From positions 4,864,001-4,928,000 of the forward strand of contig OZ242180.1 in NCBI GenBank assembly GCA_965205485.1: a DNA stretch of 64,000 bases. The letters are read 5' to 3'. The translations under genes were made by a program, and so were the position numbers. A model generated the notes under the pieces. It had not been told where the DNA came from and ran no database searches. It saw only the letters and a program-made list of their open reading frames with translations. Source of the DNA: Candidatus Latescibacterota bacterium (GTDB taxonomy: Bacteria > Latescibacterota > UBA2968 > GCA-2709665). Positions 9,637 to 23,331 of the stretch are shown one piece after another (position 1 is the stretch's first letter; the number at the start of each line of letters is the position of its first letter).

Positions 9637-9665
9637 TTGACAGAATACCCGGATTTCTCTAACAT
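9637..9665 (+). promoter_or_regulatory. sigma70 promoter for ABC ATPase
   Basis: TTGACA-N17-TAACAT. Confidence 0.6.
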
Positions 9666-9713: not shown

Positions 9714-10502
9714 ATGGCGCAGGCGCCGGACCCCCGATCCGCAGATCAGGAAAACGAAGACCACATCATCGAGGTGCATGACGTCTGGAAAACCTACTCG
9801 ATGGGAGACCAGGAAGTCCACGCGCTTCGCGGCGTCTCGTTGAACGTCATCCGGGGCGAGTACCTCTCCATCATGGGTCCCTCCGGTTCCGGCAAGACAA
9901 CGCTTTTCAACATGGTTGGCGCCCTGGATCGCCCCTCCAGGGGTAATGTCGTCGTCAATGCAATCGAAATGGGATCGCTCAGCCAGGCGCAGATCGCCTA
10001 TCTGCGCTGCCACAATATCGGTTACATTTTCCAGAGCTTCAACCTGATCCCCGTAATGACCGCCCTGGAGAACGTCGCGCTCCCCATGGTTTTTTCAGGT
10101 ATGAAAAAGTCGGAATACGAAGAAAAGGCCGCTCACAAACTCACTCAGGTGGGTCTGGGTGAACGCCTGAAGCACAACCCTTACGAACTCTCGGGAGGGC
10201 AACAGCAGCGCGTGGCCATCGCCCGCGCCATTGCCAATGACCCGGACCTGGTACTGGCGGATGAACCCACGGGCAACCTGGACCTCAAGACCGGTCAGGA
10301 GATCATCGAGTTGCTGCAGAGACTCCAGTCCGACAGCGGTGTCACCATCGTCACGAACACGCACGACCACAAGATGCTGGTGGCGTCCGACCGGGTTGTG
10401 GACCTGCGGGACGGACAGGTGGAACTGGTGCGGAGGCGGGATGAGATCGACATTCAGGAAGGACGGATCGAAGGGCTGGATATCGAAGAATTGAGCAACT
10501 GA
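9714..10502 (+). CDS. ABC transporter ATP-binding protein, LolD/MacB/FtsE type
   Basis: Walker [43 protein letters not shown]. Confidence 0.95.
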
Positions 10503-10528
10503 GACACAGCGGAGCCCAACAAGAAACG

Positions 10529-10557
10529 AGGCGTTCGTCTGAACGACGAACGCCTTT
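10529..10557. terminator. Hairpin terminator between convergent genes
   Basis: AGGCGTTCGTC-TGAAC-GACGAACGCCT-TT. Confidence 0.65.
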
Positions 10558-10602
10558 CCTGTATACCGTTTTCCGCAGCGACTCGCAAAGCCGATCCGGG
10601 AG

Positions 10603-10794
10603 TCACTCCTCGGCCCGATCGCCGGCCGGGCCGTAAAGCAGGTCGTAGTAACCGTTCTGCTCGAGACGGCGGATCATTTCGCGAATAATGGCGGCGTCCA
10701 CGCGGAACATATCGGCAATCTCAGGCGGCGTCCGGCCTTCTCTGACCAGTTCGATCAGGCGGTCGCGGCTCACAATGAGTTCGGGAACGGCCAT
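10603..10794 (-). CDS. Small helix-turn-helix protein (63 aa)
   Basis: LIELVREGRTPPEIADMFRVDAAIIREMIRRL HTH pattern; the longer ORF-track version overlaps the tRNA. Confidence 0.6.
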   Translation of the reverse strand: MAVPELIVSRDRLIELVREGRTPPEIADMFRVDAAIIREMIRRLEQNGYYDLLYGPAGDRAEE

Positions 10795-10844
10795 CGACGT
10801 GCTCCGGATCCGTGGAACTATCAGGGTGTTATTGTGGAAACAAA

Positions 10845-10920
<76 letters not shown>

Positions 10921-10968
10921 TCCATTTCTCGGGAAAATGCATTGTTCCCGTTGTACGACAAAGGCGGG

Positions 10969-10997
10969 AATCTAACAAAACAAGGCACGGATGTCAA
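10969..10997 (-). promoter_or_regulatory. sigma70 promoter for tRNA-Phe
   Basis: TTGACA-N17-TAGATT. Confidence 0.75.
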
Positions 10998-11144
10998 GAC
11001 AGTTGCGATTGTTTAAGGCGGTATGGCCGTATGGTCAGGTCTGCGAATACGGACCACGCGCAACCGGTCCGCCCGACAGTTTGACGCGCATATCCGATCA
11101 CGTCATCAGGCCGGAACGAAGCCTGCTCGAGAGAGTGCCGATCG

Positions 11145-13151
11145 ATGGCCGGCGCTGAACGAACAGCCGAAGCAATTGAACCGAACGCGGCTCCCGCCGG
11201 GTCAGCGGGCGGGGTCACGGTCCGGTCCGTGGTTTCCGGCCTGTTGCTCGTCCTGGGGCTGGACGCCCTGGCGGTCCACCTCCGGTACGTCGTGCACGGC
11301 TCGCTGATGACGTACAGCCATGTGCCGATGGCCATGCTCATCGTGTTTGTACTGATGATCATGGCCGGCGCGCTCCTGGCGCGGATTTCCGGATGGAAGC
11401 CTGCACCGGCGGAATGGCACGTCATTCTGGCGATGGGCGTCGTCGGCGCGGCCGTTCCCGGCTTCGGTCTGAGCGGCTATCTGCTTGGGTACATCGCATC
11501 CCCGTACTATTTCGCGACCGAAGTCAACGAATGGCATATCTACCTGCATCCGTACATCAACACCTGGCTGATCCCTTCAGACGAAAACAAGGCCGTCACC
11601 TGGTTCTTCGAAGGCGCACCCAAAGGCGCGCAGGTCCCCTGGGATGCCTGGGTGCTTCCGCTGTTGTGGTGGACCACGTTCATCGTCGCGGCGTTCGTGG
11701 TTCTCGGATGCGTCGCCGTCGTCTTTCGCAGACAGTGGGTACAGAACGAACGACTGGCGTTTCCGGCGATGGCGCCCCTGATCCACATGGCGGAAGAACC
11801 CGGCAGCGGAAGATTCGCACTCCCTGATTTCACGAAGAACTACCTGTTCTGGATCGGCTTCGGGCTGGCCTTCGGAATGATCGCCTGGAACTGCATCAAC
11901 TATTTCCTGCCCGGCTTTCCACGGTTTCCGGTCTATCGGGGCCGTTGGCTCTGGATCGACCGCCAGCATCCGCCCGCCTATTTCTTCATCGGTCTGTTTA
12001 CCATCTTCTTCTCCTATTTCGCCAGCCTGGACGTTCTGTTCAGCATCTGGTTCTTCGACCTGCTGTTCATTTCCGAAGGCGGCTGGCTGCACCGCCGGGG
12101 GTTTACGGCCATATCGCCGTACTATTACCGCGGCGTTTATTACTGGCAGACCAAGGGCGCATTCGCCATGCTGGCCGCCTCGGTCTTCTGGGTTGCCAGA
12201 CGCCACATCATGGATGTGTTCCGCAAGGCCTGGAACCGGGATCATCCGATGGACGACCGGGACGAACCGCTCTCCTGCCGTACGGCCGTCGTCGCCCTGC
12301 TCGTTGGGCTCGCGTTCATGTGGCTCTGGCTCTGGCGCATCGGCTTCGACCCGCTTCTGGCGGCCCTGCTCCTTCCGGCGGTCATCTTCACGTATGTCGG
12401 CCTGGCCAAGATTCTCGCGGAGACCGGCATGCCGTACACCAACGTGCCGGCGGGTCCGTGGGGTCTCGTGTCGCCATTCATCGGGTCATCGACCGTCAAC
12501 GAAAGCACACGGGTCGCCCTCCGGTTCGCGTCCAGGATCACCTCCCACTTCAAGGGGCTCTTCCTTCCCGCCCTCGCACACGCCGGGCGCGTTGCGGAAG
12601 GCGTCCGGGGCGGCCGGCGGCGTCTTGCGTATGCCGTCGTCCTGGCCTTTCTGGTCAGTTGGATCGCGAGCGTGCTGCTCACGATCCAGCTGGGATACCG
12701 GGACGGCGCCTACAATTTCAACTCCTGGGAAATCGTGCGCGCGGGGCCCAAGCATTTCGAAGGCACCGCGACGTCCGTCAAGAACTTCCTTACTAAACCG
12801 CCCGATCCGCCCGTCTACCGCGAACATCCCGACTATATGGTGTTTTTCGGCCTGGGCGGCCTGGCCACGCTCCTGCTCATTTTTCTGCGTCACCGTTTCG
12901 TCTGGTGGCCGTTGCATCCCGTCGGACTGGCCATATCCGGTTCGTACCTGGCCCGGCGAACCAGCCTGACGATATTGCTGGCCTGGCTGGTCAAACTGGT
13001 CATGCTGAAGATGGGCGGTCCTTCCGTATACAGGAAATCACGTCCCCTGTTCATTGGCCTGCTCGCCGGCTATATACTCGGAGTCGCCCTCTCGGCCTTC
13101 ATCGACGTCCTGTGGTTCCCGGAACGGGGCCACAGCGTTCATCGCTTCTGA
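11145..13151 (+). CDS. Polytopic membrane protein, DUF6785/DUF6784-like (putative transporter)
   Basis: Many TM segments; RRQWVQNERLAFP and C-terminal WWPLHPVG...YRKSRPLFIGL motifs. Confidence 0.75.
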   Translation: MAGAERTAEAIEPNAAPAGSAGGVTVRSVVSGLLLVLGLDALAVHLRYVVHGSLMTYSHVPMAMLIVFVLMIMAGALLARISGWKPAPAEWHVILAMGVVGAAVPGFGLSGYLLGYIASPYYFATEVNEWHIYLHPYINTWLIPSDENKAVTWFFEGAPKGAQVPWDAWVLPLLWWTTFIVAAFVVLGCVAVVFRRQWVQNERLAFPAMAPLIHMAEEPGSGRFALPDFTKNYLFWIGFGLAFGMIAWNCINYFLPGFPRFPVYRGRWLWIDRQHPPAYFFIGLFTIFFSYFASLDVLFSIWFFDLLFISEGGWLHRRGFTAISPYYYRGVYYWQTKGAFAMLAASVFWVARRHIMDVFRKAWNRDHPMDDRDEPLSCRTAVVALLVGLAFMWLWLWRIGFDPLLAALLLPAVIFTYVGLAKILAETGMPYTNVPAGPWGLVSPFIGSSTVNESTRVALRFASRITSHFKGLFLPALAHAGRVAEGVRGGRRRLAYAVVLAFLVSWIASVLLTIQLGYRDGAYNFNSWEIVRAGPKHFEGTATSVKNFLTKPPDPPVYREHPDYMVFFGLGGLATLLLIFLRHRFVWWPLHPVGLAISGSYLARRTSLTILLAWLVKLVMLKMGGPSVYRKSRPLFIGLLAGYILGVALSAFIDVLWFPERGHSVHRF

Positions 13152-13238
13152 TCGGCGTCCGCCGGCGTATGTCCGGGATCGGAACCCGGGCACCCGCAAC
13201 GGTAGTGGTACTGCAGAAACCTTGATCAGGATGACTCA

Positions 13239-16200
13239 ATGAAAACCCGTACACGCATCGGTCTTGCACTGGCGCTTCTCTTCGCCGTCGGGGCCTTCGC
13301 CGGCCTTGCGGTGGGACCGGAACGCGTCAACCCCTACCTTGCCGCAATCCTTGGACTCCATGCGCCCGTTGCCCCACCGGCCCCTTCCGTTCCGGAAGCG
13401 AACGCCACTTCGGTTCGCGTACTCGATACCGTATCGGACGCCGGCGTGAGGTCGCACGTTGCCCGCTTTACGGAACACCGGTCGCGAGTTCCCGGATACC
13501 CCGGACACGCCGCTGCCGCGGAATACATCCGGCGCAGTTTCGAGAGCGCCGGTCTCCGGGACGTTCGCACCGAGCCGTTCGACGTCACCTCGCCCGTTGA
13601 CAAGGGCGGCAGCGTGTCGCTGTTGCGGGACAATGTCACGTTTCCCATCCACGCGATCTGGCCGAACCTCGTCAAAACCTCCACACTGCCGCGCGAAGGG
13701 GTCCGCACGCGGTTGATCTACGGCGCGACCGGGGAATTCGCCGACTTCAACGGTCATGCGCTCGAGGGCGCGGCCGTTCTCATGGAATTCAATACGCGGA
13801 ACAACTGGCTGAACGCGGCCACGCTGGGTGCGGGGCAGATCATCTTCATCGAACCGGATTCAACCTTCTATACCGAAGCCGAGCAGAAATTCCTGCAGGT
13901 GCCCAACAGCGTGGAACGATTCTGGATCGATAAAGCGTCGGGACAGGCTCTCAAGTCAATGCTCGAACAACGCGGCGAGATTGAAATCGAACTGCATGCG
14001 AGAATGGAGTGGGAGAAACAAACCGCCCACAATATTATGGGCTTCCTTCCGGGTTCCGATCCGATCCTGAAGGAACAGATCGTCGTGATCAACGCGTACT
14101 ACGACGCCATGTCCGTCGTCCCGGCACTGGCGCCCGGCGCCGAGATGGCCAGCGGCGCCGTCGCCCTGCTGGAGCTGGTCAACTATTTCAAACGATATCC
14201 CCCGAGGCGCACCGTGCTCTTTCTGGCCACTTCGGCCCACCACCTGGGCTTTCGCGGCATCTGCGATTTCCTGGGCCGCCACGCCAGAAAGGAGAGGCAT
14301 TTCGCGGCCCTGATGACCGACCCCATCGACATCCGGCTCTTCATCGGCCTGGACCTGTCGAGCCAGACCGCTCAAATCGGCGTCTGGAACAGTACGCGCA
14401 ACTTCTACTACAACCGGTTCTTCACACCCTTCGGAAAGAAATTCGTCCGCATCTCTCAGGCGATCGCACCCGCCTTCGGCCTCGACCCCGATCAGGCGCT
14501 GCTGGACGGCATCAATCCCACGGGCGGAATGACCTGGGACATGTTCATCCCCGGCGCGAACCTGAAGACCGACGGCGAAGTCGTCCTCGAAGCCGGCACG
14601 CTCGCCCTGTCCCTGGTCACGCTGAACGATGCCCGTTTCCGGGTCGATACGCCCCTGGACCGGCCGGAAGGGGTCAACTTCGGAAATCTCGCAAAACAGG
14701 TCCGCCTGATCACGGGCGTGCTGGATATCGCCCTGAACGACCCGACGCTGATCCCTGATTACCGGCTCAATCCCGACGACCGGATGCGCGGCCTGAAGGG
14801 GTTCGTGCGTACCTTTCCCAGGCGCAGCATCGTACCGGACCGGCCCAAGGCGGGCGCCATTGCCGCGCTCAGGATGGGCATCGACAAATCGGTCAAGGGC
14901 GTCCGGCGCATCTATTACGATCTTGCCGACGAAAACGGTGAATTCTACATGCCGGGAATCGCCGAACGCCGCGTCTCCGTCAGCGCCTACTTTCAGGATC
15001 CGGAGACCGGTGAGATCACGTACGCGCCGAACTACGGGCAGCAGGCGCGGATCTACCGCGGCGACTTCGACATGGACTGGTGGATCTCCAAGAGAAATAT
15101 CATCCTCTTTCCCTGTATCGCCACCGACTTCTACGATACGGTCGATCCGCGTTTCCTCACCAAACTCTCCCAGATCAGCGTCTACGGTAGCGGCAACGTC
15201 ACGCCGCAGGAATACGGGTACGCGATCGGCTTCGGCCCGACGGAACCCGTGGGTACCCTGTTCACGCGTCCGGGAGAGAGAATCAAGGTCGCGATGAGGG
15301 CCGGCGGCGTCGCGGCGGGCTCCGGCGACATCGGCATCCGCTTCCTGCTGCTCAATGCGACGAGCGCCGAGAGTGAAGAAATCGCCAGGGGCACGGGTTA
15401 TCCCACGCTCACCCACGGGTCGTTTGCGCGCACCTCCTTTCTGGCCGCGCGTGACATGTGGACCCTTAACGAAGCCCGGAAGCAGGAGATGCAGAAATAC
15501 GCCATTGAAAACCAGCGTCTGAACATGCTGCACGGCCAGGCCCGCCTCCACCTGGACATGGCCGAAGCCGCGATGTCCCAAAGTCGCTGGGACGTTTTCA
15601 TGAAACATACCCGCGCGGCCCTCGGCATCGAATCGCGCGCCTATCCGGACGTCAAGGACACGCAGAACGACGTGGTGCGCGGCGTCGTCTTTTTCATGGC
15701 CCTGGTCATCCCGTGCGCGTTCTTCGCCGAACGACTCATCTTCACCGCCGTGGACATCCGGCGACAGATCGCGGGATTTATCGGTATTTTCGTTCTCATC
15801 TGGGTCTTTCTTTCAAACGTGCATCCGGCGTTCGAGATCTCCAATCCCCTGGTCGTGCTGCTCGCCTTCGTCATTCTGGCGCTGGCGGTGTTCGTGATTT
15901 CCCTCGTTTTCAATCGTTTCAACGAAACCATGCGCCGGTTACGGGTCCCGGAAGTGCGTTTGCATGAAACCGACGTGGGTCGAATCTCCGCCTCCCTGGC
16001 GGCCTTTCAGCTCGGCATCGCAAACATGAAACGCCGCAAATTGCGCACGGCGCTTACGTTCACCACGCTCCTGCTCCTCACATTTACGGTTCTCTCGTTT
16101 ACGTCCATCACAACGGCTCTCGAATTTCGCCGGATTCCCCTGGGCACCGAGGGTCCGTACCCCGGAATGCTCATCCGCAGCAAGTTCTGGGGCCCGCTGG

Positions 16201-17774
16201 AAGACGTCGTCTACGATTATGCCGTTACCCACTTCCGGGAATCCGCGATAACGGCCCCTCGAAGCTGGTACTATACGCGGGAGAAGAAGATTATCCCGGT
16301 CGAGTCCGAAGACAGCTCAACTCACGTACTCGGCGTTCTGGGAATGACGCCTGAGGAGGCGGACGTGACCGGCATCCACAAGACACTGAAAGTCGGCAGG
16401 TGGTTCCGTCCGGGAGAATCCGCGTGCATACTGCCGGAAAAGATAGCGGATCTACTCGGCGTGGACCCGGGCCGCCTTGAAGCGTCACGCGTCCGGGTGT
16501 TCGGCGAGTCGCTGCCGGTGATCGGCCTGATCGACGCCGGGGCGTTCAGCGAACTCAAGGACCTCGATGAGGAACCCCTCAGTCCCGCCGACTTCAAGCT
16601 TACCGATGAGGAAGCCATCGAACAGATGACCACCCAGGAAACGCGGGAGAAACAGGGCCTGGAACAACCTGAAGTCGAAATCATGCCCTTCGAGCACATC
16701 AACCCCGACGACGTCCTGATCGTCCCGTACGCGTTCCTGCGCCAGGTGGGCAGCCCGCTCCAGTCGGTCGCCCTCCGGTTCGACGCCGGATCAGACGTGG
16801 AGAGCAATGTCAAGGAGCTTCTGTCCAGGCTCTCGGTTGTACTGTTCGCGGGTCTTCCGGACGCGGACGGTCGCGTCAACGTCTCGATTTTCAGTTCGCT
16901 GGGCGACACGTCGAGACGCGGGATGAGCGATCTCTTTATTCCCATCCTCATCGCCTCGCTCATCGTGCTGAATACCATGATGGGTTCCGTGTACGAACGG
17001 TTTCGGGAAATCGGCGTCTATTCCGCGGTGGGCCTGGCGCCGGTCCACGTCGCTTTCCTGTTTATCGCGGAAGCCTGCGTCTACGCCGTCCTCGGCACGG
17101 TGAGCGGCTACATGCTGGGCCAGGCCGCTGCCAAGCTGCTTCTCTGGCAGGGCTGGCTCTCGGGCGTCACGGTCAACTATTCCGCCCAGTCGGCCGTTGT
17201 TTCGTCCGCCCTGGTCATGGCCGTCGTCATCCTGTCAACCCTCTATCCTGCCAGGCAGGCATCCCGGATGGCCGTCCCGGACGTGTCCCGCCGCTGGAAG
17301 ATCCCCGAGCCGGAAGGCGACGACTGGCGTTTCGAATTCCCGTTTACGGTTGGCGGAAACGATGTATTCGGGCTCTGCGTGTTCCTGACGGACTACTTTG
17401 ACTCCCACAGCGGCGAAGCGATGGGGGCGTTCTACACGGACGGCGCCCATCTGTACGCGAAGGGCGGCGCCGGTGAGAGCGGATACGCAATCCGCACGAC
17501 CCTGTGGCTGGCGCCCTTCGATCTGGGCGTAAGCGAGGAGCTTCGCTTCGAGGCGGAACCCACCGGCCAATTCGATATCTATACCCTCACGCTCACCCTC
17601 AGGCGACGCTCGGGCGAAGTCGCGTCATGGCGGCGTGTCAACCAGGGTTTCATGAATACCCTCCGCAAGCAGTTTCTCATCTGGAGAACCGTGGACCCCG
17701 CCGAAAAAGCCGCATACCGGGAAAAAGGCATGCGGATGCTCGTCTCGGACGAACCGGAGGCGAAACCGGCCTGA
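13239..17774 (+). CDS. Large fusion: degenerate M28-peptidase-like domain + FtsX/MacB-type permease (1511 aa)
   Basis: Signal peptide; SRVPGYPG, NIMGFLPG, AYYD...APGAEMASG; ANMKRRKLRTALT; VYERFREIGVYSAVG; LYPARQASR. Confidence 0.8.
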   Translation: MKTRTRIGLALALLFAVGAFAGLAVGPERVNPYLAAILGLHAPVAPPAPSVPEANATSVRVLDTVSDAGVRSHVARFTEHRSRVPGYPGHAAAAEYIRRSFESAGLRDVRTEPFDVTSPVDKGGSVSLLRDNVTFPIHAIWPNLVKTSTLPREGVRTRLIYGATGEFADFNGHALEGAAVLMEFNTRNNWLNAATLGAGQIIFIEPDSTFYTEAEQKFLQVPNSVERFWIDKASGQALKSMLEQRGEIEIELHARMEWEKQTAHNIMGFLPGSDPILKEQIVVINAYYDAMSVVPALAPGAEMASGAVALLELVNYFKRYPPRRTVLFLATSAHHLGFRGICDFLGRHARKERHFAALMTDPIDIRLFIGLDLSSQTAQIGVWNSTRNFYYNRFFTPFGKKFVRISQAIAPAFGLDPDQALLDGINPTGGMTWDMFIPGANLKTDGEVVLEAGTLALSLVTLNDARFRVDTPLDRPEGVNFGNLAKQVRLITGVLDIALNDPTLIPDYRLNPDDRMRGLKGFVRTFPRRSIVPDRPKAGAIAALRMGIDKSVKGVRRIYYDLADENGEFYMPGIAERRVSVSAYFQDPETGEITYAPNYGQQARIYRGDFDMDWWISKRNIILFPCIATDFYDTVDPRFLTKLSQISVYGSGNVTPQEYGYAIGFGPTEPVGTLFTRPGERIKVAMRAGGVAAGSGDIGIRFLLLNATSAESEEIARGTGYPTLTHGSFARTSFLAARDMWTLNEARKQEMQKYAIENQRLNMLHGQARLHLDMAEAAMSQSRWDVFMKHTRAALGIESRAYPDVKDTQNDVVRGVVFFMALVIPCAFFAERLIFTAVDIRRQIAGFIGIFVLIWVFLSNVHPAFEISNPLVVLLAFVILALAVFVISLVFNRFNETMRRLRVPEVRLHETDVGRISASLAAFQLGIANMKRRKLRTALTFTTLLLLTFTVLSFTSITTALEFRRIPLGTEGPYPGMLIRSKFWGPLEDVVYDYAVTHFRESAITAPRSWYYTREKKIIPVESEDSSTHVLGVLGMTPEEADVTGIHKTLKVGRWFRPGESACILPEKIADLLGVDPGRLEASRVRVFGESLPVIGLIDAGAFSELKDLDEEPLSPADFKLTDEEAIEQMTTQETREKQGLEQPEVEIMPFEHINPDDVLIVPYAFLRQVGSPLQSVALRFDAGSDVESNVKELLSRLSVVLFAGLPDADGRVNVSIFSSLGDTSRRGMSDLFIPILIASLIVLNTMMGSVYERFREIGVYSAVGLAPVHVAFLFIAEACVYAVLGTVSGYMLGQAAAKLLLWQGWLSGVTVNYSAQSAVVSSALVMAVVILSTLYPARQASRMAVPDVSRRWKIPEPEGDDWRFEFPFTVGGNDVFGLCVFLTDYFDSHSGEAMGAFYTDGAHLYAKGGAGESGYAIRTTLWLAPFDLGVSEELRFEAEPTGQFDIYTLTLTLRRRSGEVASWRRVNQGFMNTLRKQFLIWRTVDPAEKAAYREKGMRMLVSDEPEAKPA

Positions 17775-17898
17775 GAAACGTCGCGATGCCGATGAACAGT
17801 CACGTTCTCCCGTTATTGCAGTCCGGAAATAGGCTTTGCAAAACGCTGCTTTGTTTGTATTTTTCAGGCCCTTAACCCCTACCACGCGTTGACGCTCT

Positions 17899-20319
17899 AT
17901 GGCCTTTCTCGATCGCATTCGCAGGCGGAAATCCAATCCGTACCAGGAAATCGAAGAGTACCGGGATCTGCTTGATGTCCCCAAGGAGTTCGAAGAGGGC
18001 TTCAACTCCAAGACGATCCTCGGCGCACTCTTCGTTTCCGTCATCATGGTTCCGGGCAACATCTACCTGGAACTCATGGTGGGACATTCCGTCGGCGCCG
18101 CCGCCCAGTGGGTGACCATCATCCTGTTTCTGGAACTGGCCAAGCGCTCGTTCACCGTGTTGAAGAAGCAGGAACTCTACCTGCTCTACTATGTCACCAG
18201 CGCCCTGGTCGCCCGCGAAACCGGAATGTTCGAAGGCCTGCTCTGGCAGCAATACTACGTTCAGTCTCCCGCAGCAAAGCAGTTCGGCATCTCCCACCTC
18301 ATCCCCCGATGGTGGGCGCCCCCGCCCGATTCTCCCGCGCTGATCGACCGGACTTTTCTGCATCAGGACTGGCTTCTGCCCATCTCCCTGCTTGTCCTTG
18401 GGATGATCATGGGGCGCATCCAGTGGTTTACCGCGAGCTACGTGCTCTTCCGGATCACCTCCGACTACGAGCGCCTGCCGTTTCCGTTCGCGCCGATCAA
18501 CGCCCAGGGCGCCATGGCGCTCGCGGAAGAAAGCAGCGGCCAGTACAGCTGGCGATGGCGGGTCTTCAGCATCGGCGCCGTGATCGGCGTGGTATTCGGC
18601 TCCGTCTACGTGGCGGTGCCCGCCATTACCGGCGCGTTTATGGAGAGCCCGCTTCAGCTCATCCCCATCCCATGGGTGGATTTCACCCAATACACGGGAT
18701 ATTTCCTGCCGGCCACGCCGCTGGGTTTCACGCTGCACCTGGCCCCCATCTTTGCCGGGCTGCTGGCGCCCTTCTGGGCCGTCATGGGCGCATTCATCGG
18801 CGTCGCCATCCACACCGCGGCGGGCCCCATCCTGTATTCCTACGGGTACATGCCCAACTGGTATATGGGCATGGATACGATCATGACCCACTTCGTCACG
18901 GGCATCGATTTCTGGATGAGCTTCGGGATCGGCATCACCTTCGCCATCGCGATTATTGGATTCTACCAGGTCTGGACCGGCGTCCGAACCGCGCGTGTCG
19001 AGAAAAAGGAAAAGGGCAGCTGGACGCCGCCGCCCGGCCGGGGAGACTTCCGGATCTGGATCTGCATCGTGCTCTTCTGTCTTGCGAGCCTCTATACCAT
19101 AATCCTCGCCAAGGTCCTCTTCCCTGACCTCGTGAGCACCGTGCTGCTCATGTTCTTCTTCGTCTTCGCGTTCGTCTATACGCCGCTGATCTCCTTCGTC
19201 AACGCCCGGCTGGACGGGCTGGTCGGACAGAACGTCAATATCCCCTATATCAGGGAAGCCACGATCTTTCTGAGCGGGTTCAGGGGTATCGAAATCTGGT
19301 TTGTGCCCTTCCCCCTGGCCAACTGGGGCGCACAGGCCGAAACGTTCCGTCAGATCGAACTCACGGGCTCGAAATTCACCGGTATCCTGAAGGCTGAGGT
19401 CTTCATGATCCCGCTGATCCTTCTGACCAGTTTCATGTACTGGTCCTATATCTGGAAGCTGGCGCCCATTCCCTCGTCCTCCTACCCCTACGTCCAGATG
19501 ATGTGGCCGCTGCGGGCGCTCCAGAGCAGCGTCTGGTACACCGGCACCATGCAGGGCGAGGTGGAGCACGACCCGTCCTCCGGAGCGGTATCCTTCCAGC
19601 CGAGCAATCTGCCCGACGGCAACTGGTGGTACTGGCGTGCCCGCGCCTCGGCCGACGCGCACATCGATGACCACGAACAACGCACTTACGGACCGTGGTC
19701 CCGCGTTGGGTATTTCTATACGAACTTCAAGAGTACCGAAAAGCCGCTCGTACCGTCGCTTCCGGTGGACCGGTCGGCGCCGGACATTTCCGAAGCGTTG
19801 CGGCTGGGCCTGCCTTCGGCGCCGGCGTTGCGGAGTCCCGATGACGGAAGCCACGCGGACAACCCAAACCCCAACCTGGTCGTGCTCGCCGCGCGGGACC
19901 CGGAAGGCCGGGAGCTCGTGTATCAGTTCGAAGTGGACCAGGTGCCCTCCTTCGACGGTTCCTTTCTGCAGAGTTCGGACGACGAGCCGATCCTGTTCGA
20001 AGCCATCAAGCCGGTTGTGATCGCCATCGGACTCGCCGTCGGCCTGGTCTCGTTCGTGGTTCTGTCCGTCCTGGGCCTGCCGGTCCTGCTCATCTTCGGA
20101 TACATACGGAGTCTGACGAGCATTCCCCACGTGATGATCACCGAGATCATCGGTGCGCTCCTCGCGCGGTACTATTTCTGGAAGCGCTTCGGCAGACAGC
20201 AATGGCGCCTCTACGCGGCGGTGTTGTACGTCGGATTCTCGGTGGGCATGTCCCTGGTGGGCATGGCCTCCGTCTCCATTGCAATGATACAAAAGGCCGT
20301 CTCGGTACTGTTGTTCTGA
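17899..20319 (+). CDS. OPT-like peptide transporter with inserted FN3/Ig-like domain
   Basis: FEEGFNSKTILGALF...AAQWVTIILFLE; SDYERLPFP; many TM helices; soluble insert at about 19594-19977. Confidence 0.7.
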   Translation: MAFLDRIRRRKSNPYQEIEEYRDLLDVPKEFEEGFNSKTILGALFVSVIMVPGNIYLELMVGHSVGAAAQWVTIILFLELAKRSFTVLKKQELYLLYYVTSALVARETGMFEGLLWQQYYVQSPAAKQFGISHLIPRWWAPPPDSPALIDRTFLHQDWLLPISLLVLGMIMGRIQWFTASYVLFRITSDYERLPFPFAPINAQGAMALAEESSGQYSWRWRVFSIGAVIGVVFGSVYVAVPAITGAFMESPLQLIPIPWVDFTQYTGYFLPATPLGFTLHLAPIFAGLLAPFWAVMGAFIGVAIHTAAGPILYSYGYMPNWYMGMDTIMTHFVTGIDFWMSFGIGITFAIAIIGFYQVWTGVRTARVEKKEKGSWTPPPGRGDFRIWICIVLFCLASLYTIILAKVLFPDLVSTVLLMFFFVFAFVYTPLISFVNARLDGLVGQNVNIPYIREATIFLSGFRGIEIWFVPFPLANWGAQAETFRQIELTGSKFTGILKAEVFMIPLILLTSFMYWSYIWKLAPIPSSSYPYVQMMWPLRALQSSVWYTGTMQGEVEHDPSSGAVSFQPSNLPDGNWWYWRARASADAHIDDHEQRTYGPWSRVGYFYTNFKSTEKPLVPSLPVDRSAPDISEALRLGLPSAPALRSPDDGSHADNPNPNLVVLAARDPEGRELVYQFEVDQVPSFDGSFLQSSDDEPILFEAIKPVVIAIGLAVGLVSFVVLSVLGLPVLLIFGYIRSLTSIPHVMITEIIGALLARYYFWKRFGRQQWRLYAAVLYVGFSVGMSLVGMASVSIAMIQKAVSVLLF

Positions 20320-20406: not shown

Positions 20407-20964
20407 ATGTCAGGCGCGATCGGCATGATCGAAGTCGAAGGCGTTGCCGGGATTATTCTCGCGTCGGACGCTGCTTGCAAGGCCGCCGGAGTGGACCTCC
20501 TGGGCTGGGAGTCCATCGGCGGATTCACCACAGTCTTTCTCGGCGGATCCATCAGCAGGGTGGCAACCGCGCTCAAGAGCGGCGAACAAGCAGCCAGAGA
20601 GGTGGCGGGGCACGTGGTGGCGGCGCCGATGACACACCCGGAACCCGCCTGCCGGGATTACGTTTCGAATGAAATCGCCACGGAGCGGCGCACGCCGACC
20701 GGCGCGCTGGGTCTGATCGAGACGAGAGGATACGGCGCGCACGTCACCGCCAACGACAATATGGTGAAGGCGGCCGACGTCCGGGTCTTCAACGTGCTCA
20801 CCGTACACAACCGGGTGGTCTGCTCCCTTATACTTGGGGACGTGGCTTCCTTGACCGAGGCCCTGCCCGCGGGTCGCGCGAGCGTCGAGACAGGAGAGAA
20901 TTTCCTCGGCGCCGCCCTCATCCCCAAGCCCCTGCCCGACGTCCTGCGGGCATTCGGCCCCTGA
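20407..20964 (+). CDS. BMC shell protein with two BMC (Pfam00936) domains
   Basis: AIGMIEVEG...DAACKAAGV and ALGLIETRG...DNMVKAADV...GDVASL...IPKP. Confidence 0.92.
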   Translation: MSGAIGMIEVEGVAGIILASDAACKAAGVDLLGWESIGGFTTVFLGGSISRVATALKSGEQAAREVAGHVVAAPMTHPEPACRDYVSNEIATERRTPTGALGLIETRGYGAHVTANDNMVKAADVRVFNVLTVHNRVVCSLILGDVASLTEALPAGRASVETGENFLGAALIPKPLPDVLRAFGP

Positions 20965-20972
20965 GCGCCGTC

Positions 20973-22133
20973 GTGTCCGCACGAAATCATGCCCTGGGGA
21001 TTCTGGAGACCCGCGGCATGACCGCGCTTGTCGCGGCCCTGGACGCCATGCTGAAAACCGTGGACGTCAGGGTCCTGGGGCGTCACGGCGTTGGATCCGG
21101 CTGGCTGACCGTCGTGATCGAAGGCGTCGTTTCGGACGTGGAGGCCGCCATTCGGATCGGGCGATCCGAGGCCGAGAACCACGGCGAGTTGATCAGCGCC
21201 GACGTGATCGCCGGCCCGGCCCCGGGCGCCCTCGCGTCGATGCCGCACATGGCGGGCGCGGGCACGTCGAAACCGGTCGGCTCGCAGGCGATGGGCATCC
21301 TCGAAACACGCGGAATGGTACCCCTCATCCGCGGCGCCGACGCCATGATCAAGAGCGCGCCCGTCCACGTCGCCGGCTGGACTTCCATTGGCGGCGCGCT
21401 GGTTCATCTCGTGGTCCGGGGCGATATATCCTCGGTCCAGACTGCCCTTCAGACCGGTAAAGCGTGTGCGGATGAAGTCGGGGAAGTCTACGCGACCCTG
21501 GCGATTCCCAGCCCTGAAGCGGGTATCGCCCCATTGCTTCCGGATCCGCCGATTTCAAACGGGCGCAAGGAAGACGCCGGGGCGCTCGGTATTCTTGAAA
21601 CAACGGGTTACGTGTCCGCGGTCGGCGGATCGGACGCGATGGTCAAAGCGGCCGACGTCGACCTTGTGCGCCTCGTCATCGCCAGCGGAGGCCGGGTGGA
21701 CGCGCTGGTGAAAGGCGAACTCGACGCGGTCCAGGCGGCCGTGGAAGCCGGTATCGATGGCGCGCGGGAGGCCGGGGAACTGAATGCCTCCTGTGTCGTT
21801 TCCCGCCCGTCTTCCGACATCATGGCCTGCTTCGGCGGGAACACCGTCAGGAATACGTCAGGCTTGCATCAGGCGATGGGACTGATCGAAACGCGCAGCA
21901 CCGTGGCCCTGGTCAAAGCCGTGGATCAGATGTTGAAGTCCGCGGACGTGGAATACGAGGGCCGGTACAAAGTGGGGTACTTTCTCACGGCAAGCGTCGT
22001 CCGGGGAGACGTCGGCGCGGTACGTGCCGCCCTGAATGTCGGCGCCGGGGAAGCGGAGAGGTACGGCGAACTGGTGTCTGCACACCTTATACCCCATCCC
22101 TATCCGGCGCTGGAAGAACGGCTGATCCACTGA
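20973..22133 (+). CDS. BMC shell protein with four tandem BMC domains
   Basis: Four repeats of A[LM]G[IL][LI]ET...D.M.K...G[DVE]...V.AA...P; GTG start without clear SD. Confidence 0.92.
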   Translation: MSARNHALGILETRGMTALVAALDAMLKTVDVRVLGRHGVGSGWLTVVIEGVVSDVEAAIRIGRSEAENHGELISADVIAGPAPGALASMPHMAGAGTSKPVGSQAMGILETRGMVPLIRGADAMIKSAPVHVAGWTSIGGALVHLVVRGDISSVQTALQTGKACADEVGEVYATLAIPSPEAGIAPLLPDPPISNGRKEDAGALGILETTGYVSAVGGSDAMVKAADVDLVRLVIASGGRVDALVKGELDAVQAAVEAGIDGAREAGELNASCVVSRPSSDIMACFGGNTVRNTSGLHQAMGLIETRSTVALVKAVDQMLKSADVEYEGRYKVGYFLTASVVRGDVGAVRAALNVGAGEAERYGELVSAHLIPHPYPALEERLIH

Positions 22134-22161
22134 TCGATCGCTGAATACCCGGGAATGATCG

Positions 22162-23331
22162 ATGATCCGTATTGACGATGCGGTTGTTACCGAACAATTG
22201 CTCAAGGACAGACTGGGCGCTGAGCGGGAAGTCGAAATCTGCCCGCGGGCGAAGCTGACGCCGCTGGCGCTGGACTATCTGGCGGCCAACCGGGTCCAGG
22301 TATCCAGAAGAGAGGCGGCGGCCGCCGGTCCGCGGACTTCAGCGCCGGCCGCCCGTCGGAAATCCGGCGAACGGAAAGAATTCAAGGGCATCTTCTGCCC
22401 CAATATCGTCATTTTCGACAGCAATGACCGGATCAACTACGCGGAAATGGAGCGATATGTCAACTGGCTCATCGAAGCCGGCATCCACGGGTTGTATCCC
22501 AATGGCAGCACGGGCGAATTCGTGCGTCTTTCCAGCGACGAGCGCAAGGAGGTCGTGCGCCTGGTCACGAACGTCAACCGTGGGCGCGTGCCCGTTCTGG
22601 CCGGCGCGAGCGAAGCCAACCTCCGCGACGTGCTCAGAATGAGCGAATACTACGCCGGCATCGACGTCGACGCCATTTCTCTCGTACCCCCGTACTATTA
22701 CGAGATCTCGGACACCAGCCTCTTCGAGTACTTCGCTGAGATCGCGAGACAGACGCCTCTCGACGTCCTGTTATACAATATCCCCCAGTTCACGCAGGAA
22801 CTCACGCTGGACATCATGGAACAGTTGCTTCCCTTCGAGCGAATCATGGGTACCAAAGATTCCAGCCGGGATATGCCGCGGCTGATCAACACCATGCATC
22901 GGCTGCGGGCGCAGCGCCCAGACTACGTGGTCCTGGTCGGCTGCGAGGAAATCCTGTGTCCATCCATTATGATGGGCGCCAGCGGGGGCACGATCGCGAC
23001 CTCCGGCATCATTCCCGAGGTCATTGTGGATATCTATGAAAAGACGCTTGCCGGCGACCTCGAGCGTGCACGCGGCATGCAATGCCGCATCCTGGACCTC
23101 ATCAACCTGATGCTGCTGGGTGTGAACTTTCCGGAGGGATTCAAAACCGGTGTGGCCGTGCGCGGATTCGACGTCGGACCTCCGCGGCAGGCCATGAGCG
23201 ACGAGGAAAAGGAATATCTCCTCAAGCTTGAGTCCCAGATCAGCTGCATCCTCAAGGATATGGGTTACGACGTGAATGGTGCGCGGGCGTGTCCCGTAAC
23301 CGACCTGCCGCCAATTGTCGACCGTACCTGA
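22162..23331 (+). CDS. DHDPS/NAL family class I aldolase/dehydratase with N- and C-terminal extensions (probable BMC cargo)
   Basis: GSTGE, PVLAG, PPYY, LYNIP, Schiff-base K in GTKDSS; extra N-terminal KLTPLALDYL domain. Confidence 0.85.
   Translation: MIRIDDAVVTEQLLKDRLGAEREVEICPRAKLTPLALDYLAANRVQVSRREAAAAGPRTSAPAARRKSGERKEFKGIFCPNIVIFDSNDRINYAEMERYVNWLIEAGIHGLYPNGSTGEFVRLSSDERKEVVRLVTNVNRGRVPVLAGASEANLRDVLRMSEYYAGIDVDAISLVPPYYYEISDTSLFEYFAEIARQTPLDVLLYNIPQFTQELTLDIMEQLLPFERIMGTKDSSRDMPRLINTMHRLRAQRPDYVVLVGCEEILCPSIMMGASGGTIATSGIIPEVIVDIYEKTLAGDLERARGMQCRILDLINLMLLGVNFPEGFKTGVAVRGFDVGPPRQAMSDEEKEYLLKLESQISCILKDMGYDVNGARACPVTDLPPIVDRT

Follow-up and report, generated by a model that had tools for sequence, protein, structure and literature searches.

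What is specified by an ABC ATPase gene and three very large membrane protein genes that lie together in the genome of a Candidatus Latescibacterota bacterium? The genes fall between positions 9714 and 20319 of a 64,000-nucleotide stretch of contig OZ242180.1 (assembly GCA_965205485.1), referred to here as the window. A preliminary description of this DNA proposed a four-component membrane machine. We denote the DUF6785/DUF6784 gene as A, the gene encoding M28 and FtsX domains as B and the gene for the 806-aa protein as C. Two further letters are used for components encoded elsewhere: F, a small FtsX protein, and X, a soluble protein of ~300 aa. Our analysis indicates that the four families belong to one conserved membrane system. 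The system is likely a nutrient importer, in which one shared MacB-type ATP motor would serve many interchangeable carriers of predicted OPT fold. We put the probability of this reading at about one half.

Conservation and composition of the system

B is present in 138 of 151 genomes of the phylum, and all 13 genomes lacking it belong to one family, f10. Other components were examined in a hand-picked set of 32 genomes. The ATPases of the clade that includes the window gene (hereafter clade ATPases), F, C and a PqqD-like protein were each found in 24/24 genomes outside f10 and in 0/8 inside. Similarly, DUF6784 was detected in 0/13 f10 genomes and 6/6 others. Throughout the 32-genome set, F is always single and directly 5' of one clade ATPase. 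F is also present in 25 of the 26 genomes of a second phylum. The preliminary description made a single system depend on co-occurrence of the four families, and the families do co-occur.

Operons are found in three other Latescibacterota families. The gene order is A-(TPR)-B-C-gap-PqqD-like-F-ATPase in genomes G005, G011 and G016, and TPR-B-C-gap-PqqD-like-F-ATPase, without an adjacent A, in G003. In G011, X is called within the gap. A metagenome scan with an F profile yielded 80 loci. Of the 49 loci that were long enough, 47 have the ATPase directly after F. A further component is in view in 18 of the 26 loci that extend at least 3 kb to either side, and 9/80 contain the complete set of F, ATPase, B, A and C. 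When the sources of F loci were named (nine of ten proteins found, four clusters with organism names), they comprised Desulfofustis, Desulfocastanea catecholica, Desulforhopalus and Desulfocapsa (Desulfobacterota), Armatimonadota, Lentisphaeria and Hydrogenedentota. Desulfocastanea catecholica and Desulfofustis have C proteins in the same 90% cluster as the C of a compact five-gene operon. In addition, five fusion proteins of 2105–2134 aa consist of a whole B followed by A. The comparison of gene neighbourhoods across phyla that had been recommended thus reveals conserved clusters in Latescibacterota families, Desulfobacterota and other named groups. The operons in other families and phyla, together with the co-occurrence, uphold the view that the four families are one system.

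The term 'four-component' has to be given up. More parts exist; F, the PqqD-like protein and X also belong, and are encoded elsewhere in the genome. The source genome has 23 copies of A, 4 of B, 2 of C, 2 clade ATPases and single copies of F, the PqqD-like gene and X. Its B loci are arranged A-B-C (the window), A-B, A-B-A and B-C. F and a sister ATPase are at 2.73 Mb, with X and the PqqD-like gene at 4.24 Mb. At the latter locus (L068 9354-10768 of the source genome, G000) the single-copy PqqD-like gene is stand-alone and accompanied by X; neither a radical SAM gene nor a precursor gene was noticed beside the pair. F is an FtsX protein with four helices; ~40 residues separate the first two, leaving almost no outer domain. 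Many F homologues are 300–820 aa in length, and in P0122 a DUF7408/ThuA/GATase-like domain precedes the FtsX part. The A-B-A locus of the source genome (L002 and L083, 1.01–1.03 Mb) heads two enzyme-like genes for propeller-containing proteins of ~1200 aa. In G009, broken A and B paralogues adjoin insertion-sequence genes (L067 6558-15050).

Multiplication of A and the context of its paralogues

The copy number of A exceeds that of its partners. G003 has 21 DUF6785 matches versus one each of B, C, F and the ATPase. In some genomes B is multiplied to 4–5 copies, and the individual copies often have an A or C of their own next to them. We compared 19 A genes that are distant from any B with B-linked A genes, leaving out three near-duplicate rows. 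In the tree the two groups interleave, with at least 5 changes forced. Furthermore, of the 45 positions that are conserved among B-linked A proteins, the scattered ones retain 90% on average. Because A has multiplied (23 copies here, 21 in G003) while F is single, and because scattered A genes interleave with the others and keep the conserved positions, we infer that the motor is shared.

In a hand-picked sample with no control, most genes next to the scattered A copies belong to catabolic families, including PhyH, amidohydrolases, Gfo/Idh/MocA, xylose-isomerase-like, heparinase II/III and GH-like genes. A second type of context is provided by a glycosyltransferase trio. In 3/4 alphaproteobacterial plasmid loci read, an SBP_bac_5 ABC importer directly precedes the trio. 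Homologues of the trio lie beside F-ATPase in 10/80 F loci, where contigs are short and none has an SBP or permease homologue in view. At L166 the trio cluster is seen whole, bounded by opposite-strand genes. Judged from gene order, this looks like one importer replacing another. Import is favoured as the direction because of the catabolic neighbours and the trio context, and because OPT proteins are described as uptake porters in the part of PMC3061005 that deals with them. The trio consists of GT28-like, GT4-like and GT28-like genes and is common to Desulfobacterota-type loci and rhizobial plasmids (L143 4781-9086; L169 4408-18961). The rhizobial loci also carry genes for an adenylate cyclase, an ABC exporter and a cNMP protein.

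A predicted OPT/YS1 fold for A and C

A (11145..13151, + strand) encodes 668 aa and is one of the 23 paralogues. The product matches Pfam DUF6785 and DUF6784, in line with its earlier designation as DUF6785-like. C (17899..20319, + strand; 806 aa) is one of two paralogues and has no real Pfam family. AlphaFold models were obtained for A (pLDDT 87.4; 29 sequences) and C (pLDDT 81.9; 65 sequences). A Foldseek search, a check proposed in the preliminary description, matched both to barley Yellow Stripe 1 (YS1; 7wsr), with E values of 3.5e-9 for A and 2.1e-6 for C. Alignment to YS1 gave Z 22.9 and rmsd 4.3 over 545 aligned residues for A, and Z 18.1 and rmsd 4.8 over 544 for C. YS1 was the sole real structural match of either model; the next, unrelated, rows had Z 5–6. 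On the strength of these models, the OPT/YS1 fold (YS core plus scaffold) is predicted for both proteins along their whole length.

At the sequence level, A and C are 10–13% identical to YS1. There was no Pfam OPT match for A, C or four C homologues, and profiles of A and C found no match among PDB sequences. The description of C as OPT-like therefore holds for its predicted fold and fails for its sequence. A and C do share the E-R-L-x-F-P motif reported for them (QNERLAFP at A 200, DYERLPFP at C 189). When A was aligned to C with hhalign the motifs were in register over 201–202 columns, with weak significance (probabilities 43% and 56%, E 2.5e-4 and 1.2e-4). Common ancestry of the two, for which the motif had been taken as a hint, is better borne out by both models matching YS1. 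Proton coupling in YS1 involves the acidic residues D446, D490 and D494. Columns 375–650 of A hold only one mostly acidic position (E426, 71%), and C keeps E453, E487 and E500 in its long-form alignment.

Residues 550–694 of C form a beta-sandwich insert of ~145 aa that is absent from short C forms and has a weak resemblance to Ig folds (Z about 6). A C homologue in G003 (L060 7842-10718) has a Reg_prop beta-propeller insert at the equivalent position. The outer loop of C seems to take exchangeable domains. A search of proteins of 1412–4030 aa found no longer fused form of C, which is weak evidence, and no C homologue was found in plasmid records.

B combines an altered M28 head with a MacB-type module

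B (13239..17774, + strand; 1511 aa) is one of four paralogues and matches Peptidase_M28 and FtsX in Pfam. The protein has, in order, an N-terminal anchor, a PA-domain M28-like head, a middle region, three extra transmembrane (TM) helices (812–890), a MacB-type module and a C-terminal domain of ~165 aa. The module comprises a TM helix (939–957), an outer domain and further TMs between 1233 and 1336 (hydrophobic helices at 939, 1233, 1271 and 1318). It aligns to MacB in both parts, and the homologue at L143 has a MacB_PCD match. Coupling-helix motifs are present in B (YERFREIG) and F (SVTERFREIG). No real Pfam match was found for the middle region, outer domain or C-terminal domain of B, for the C insert or for X. 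Archaeal look-alikes of B gave Atlas matches below 0.9 only.

The alignment of the head to PA-domain M28 aminopeptidases (YwaD, 2ek8; E 6e-19) spans ~300 profile positions and takes in the PA insert. Weaker matches are to transferrin receptor (E 3e-8) and nicalin (E 4e-6), both of which are M28-fold non-enzymes. Compared with YwaD, 2ek8 and 2anp, HYD is replaced by YYD, the Glu-Glu pair by His334 and a variable residue (HH in the window protein, only the first His being conserved) and YHTP by VDTP. The first metal-site His is Tyr/Phe in 21/22 B proteins, and the last His of the M28 set is Asp, Gly or another residue. The altered positions are those that we take to be the M28 zinc ligands and catalytic residues. 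Thus, B does not have the two-zinc ligand set and catalytic Glu of an active M28 enzyme, which fits the name pseudo-peptidase; by inference from these substitutions, the head would lack M28 catalysis. Six residues of the head (H334, Y288, D289, R466, T471 and P472) do not vary among 28 B proteins.

The window ATPase is a second copy

The ATPase gene of the window (9714..10502, + strand) encodes a 262-aa protein of LolD/MacB type with a Pfam ABC_tran match. Walker A/B, Q-loop, LSGGQ and H-loop are all intact. The best NCBIfam matches are LolD, YbbA and FtsE, each under its cut-off. In the tree, where long branches among the outgroups were flagged, the protein lies inside the system clade (support 100/99), whose other members are ATPases encoded beside F. 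The sister ATPase, beside F elsewhere in the genome, is 62% identical.

Second copies of the clade ATPase occur in 15/24 genomes and are missing from 9/24. The second ATPase adjoins A-B in 14/14 close relatives (mostly labelled Candidatus Latescibacterota) and in G072. Across the 14 close relatives it is 91–99% identical, above the flanking enzymes. At more distant loci, it is beside A-B-C in only 1/13, with one decayed remnant in addition, and 11 of the 13 loci read have no system gene in view. The remnant is in G062 (L173 6533-12986), from another family, where the ATPase, HTH gene and tRNA-Phe are followed by A residues 40–69 and C residues 668–806, a deleted A-B-C. We considered whether the second ATPase is strictly tied to window-type B; G062, which kept the ATPase with an A-C remnant only, rules this out.

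The 'orphan' ATPase is a second paralogue. Because most distant second-copy loci have no system gene in view, and because a remnant survives in another family, the gene is linked to the system by descent and old adjacency, as read from the sequences, and not by a shared operon. The preliminary description held that pairing of the ATPase with another permease elsewhere would tell against the system. The sister ATPase is indeed beside another permease, but that permease is F, which is part of the same system.

Transcription signals and neighbouring genes

A sigma-70-like promoter match (TTGACA-17-TAACAT; 9637..9665, + strand) lies 5' of the ATPase gene. It is a consensus match alone, and the scanned region had 5 such matches versus 3.3 expected. 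An 11-bp hairpin (10529..10555, listed on the - strand; z -4.44, 0/200 shuffles), likely a terminator, separates the convergent ATPase and HTH genes. Because a promoter-like site precedes the ATPase gene and a strong hairpin follows it, the gene is probably its own transcription unit and not co-transcribed with A-B-C. No RNA data set was listed for the stretch, which carries no information about expression.

The small HTH gene and tRNA-Phe reported between the ATPase and A are both present and, it can be added, are on the - strand. The first (10603..10794) encodes a 63-aa HTH-like protein (HTH_23, E 3e-4, below cut-off). Its membership of the system is doubtful. The tRNA-Phe(GAA) gene (10845..10920) is divergent from A and is a bystander.

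Directly 3' of C is a microcompartment (BMC) cluster (20407-23331) encoding 2-domain and 4-domain BMC shell proteins and a DHDPS-family aldolase with an N-terminal extension. This cluster is kept among close relatives but not at the family level. It was rejected as a part of the system; the genes follow C in 13/13 close relatives with a contig reaching that far, but not in G072, G082, G024 or the other operons read.

Discussion

Group II ECF importers combine an EcfAA'T module with exchangeable S components. Their substrate-specific subunits are scattered, they use no free binding protein and they sometimes have two different ATPases. The system described here resembles them in logic only, with one ATP module, many scattered membrane subunits, no free binding protein and, in some genomes, two different ATPases; sharing would be consistent with the copy numbers. 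It has no EcfT-type coupling protein or S-component fold. Instead, the module is MacB-type and its partners are FtsX-type proteins and ~660-aa carriers with a predicted YS1 elevator fold. The closest kinship of the motor is with type VII ABC systems (MacB, LolCDE, FtsEX, YtrEF and YbbAP-TesA). Shared properties are the LolD/MacB-type ATPase with intact catalytic motifs, the 4-TM FtsX module, whose first helix in B leads into a long outer domain, and the coupling-helix motif of B and F; a B/F heterodimer like LolC/LolE is likely. The differences are that B is extended by the M28-like head, by three additional helices and by a C-terminal domain, and that only a short segment separates the first two helices of F. 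The conserved partners are OPT-fold membrane proteins, for which we found no description in any type VII system. The head itself is set apart from the M28 aminopeptidases, transferrin receptor and nicalin that share its fold by fusion to a type VII permease. A and C, for their part, resemble OPT/YSL proteins (TC 2.A.67; barley YS1, 7wsr/7wst) in predicted fold. They differ in that operons and fusions link them to an ABC motor, whereas YS1 is a stand-alone proton symporter and homodimer, according to passages of PMC9691689.

How might a shared-motor importer work? B would form a pair with F, as LolC does with LolE, and the pair would bind two ATPases. The ATPase of the window could join this motor in trans, alone or with the sister ATPase. 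C would be a constant carrier-like subunit, and A, which would set the substrate, could be exchanged; the two would pair via scaffold domains in the manner of YS1 protomers. The altered M28 head of B may serve as a tethered capture domain, in the role that a free binding protein has elsewhere, and the elevator would be loaded or reset by the ATP cycle. Each A paralogue would probably have its own cargo from among small organic breakdown products. Peptides or glycans, suggested at the outset, are not singled out by anything in the data. More tentatively, the system may represent a new class of primary active importer. ATP would then power OPT-fold carriers of elevator type through a MacB-type mechanotransducer, a tethered pseudo-peptidase would be the receptor, and a cell could have up to about two dozen carriers to exchange.

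Several observations weigh against a shared-motor importer. The passages of PMC5985334 on characterised type VII systems have them move no substrate across the inner membrane. YS1 is a self-sufficient homodimeric proton-coupled elevator carrier, in the account given by parts of PMC9691689; it works alone on protons, and A may therefore need no ATP. The 32 genomes were picked with the distribution of B already known, and since the f10 absences form one clade they amount to one loss event and not many independent ones. F and the ATPase stand alone in 8/26 long F loci, X and the PqqD-like gene were not seen in compact F-ATPase-B-A-C operons, and eight loci of the second phylum (L019-L026) have B without A or C within 10 kb. 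The five B-A fusions are 58–90% identical and maybe of single origin, and the residues kept in scattered A proteins may reflect the fold alone. The window ATPase is likely transcribed on its own and is still there in G062, where the adjacent A-B-C has been deleted.

Some of these points would be accommodated if the A proteins were ordinary ion-driven OPT carriers, and B, F and the ATPase, possibly with C, were an ATP-driven assembly, quality-control or gating factor that provides no power stroke. Nicalin is a membrane-protein biogenesis factor, and the head of B would be nicalin-like; its weak matches to nicalin and transferrin receptor agree with such a role, as does the self-sufficiency of YS1 as a proton symporter. 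The strict co-occurrence and the use of a single motor for many carriers would be explained equally well. Permanent fusion of B to A is more easily understood for a working partner than for a chaperone that acts transiently, and the genomes with 4–5 copies of B, often each with its own A or C, also speak against an assembly factor, which we regard as rather unlikely. We consider it unlikely, too, that the system exports, remodels or senses an envelope molecule in the manner of LolCDE, FtsEX or BceAB, with the OPT-fold proteins flipping or presenting the substrate and the motor working in the periplasm via the M28 head. All characterised type VII systems act outside the membrane, as stated in passages of PMC5985334, and the system genes come after glycosyltransferases in 10/80 F loci. 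An ABC_membrane gene lies 3' of C in L143, and the six invariant residues imply that the pocket of the head is kept for something. Set against this, 23 A paralogues among catabolic genes are hard to square with one envelope substrate, and the same glycosyltransferase trio adjoins a classic importer in rhizobia. Genes for an adaptor, an outer-membrane exit duct or a two-component system were not noticed beside the operons read, where no profile search was made for them.

The four window genes might also not be one unit, A-B-C being in the system and the window ATPase a spare paralogue beside tRNA-Phe that no longer serves it. The promoter-like site and hairpin, the loss of adjacency in 11/13 distant second-copy loci and the 9/24 genomes with no second copy would all be expected. 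The gene is nevertheless nested in the system clade with its motifs intact, is kept in 15/24 genomes and is more conserved than the flanking enzymes in 14 close relatives. Its adjacency is old enough for a remnant to survive in another family. We hold a spare ATPase to be very improbable.

A literature search on this combination and its parts, with subscription papers and supplements outside its reach, found no description of the combination, and passages on Latescibacteria transporters in PMC4454575 make no mention of it. The system is real, conserved in several bacterial groups and apparently undescribed. DUF6785/6784 gains a predicted fold. If a shared-motor importer is the correct reading, this would be the first type VII ABC system to power uptake across the inner membrane, and its carriers the first of OPT fold to be run by ATP. 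One machine would then combine two classes of transporter that have been regarded as distinct, the ATP-driven mechanotransducers and the ion-driven elevator carriers. With up to 23 carriers per genome, the system may be a principal means of uptake in Latescibacterota and in several other poorly cultured groups.

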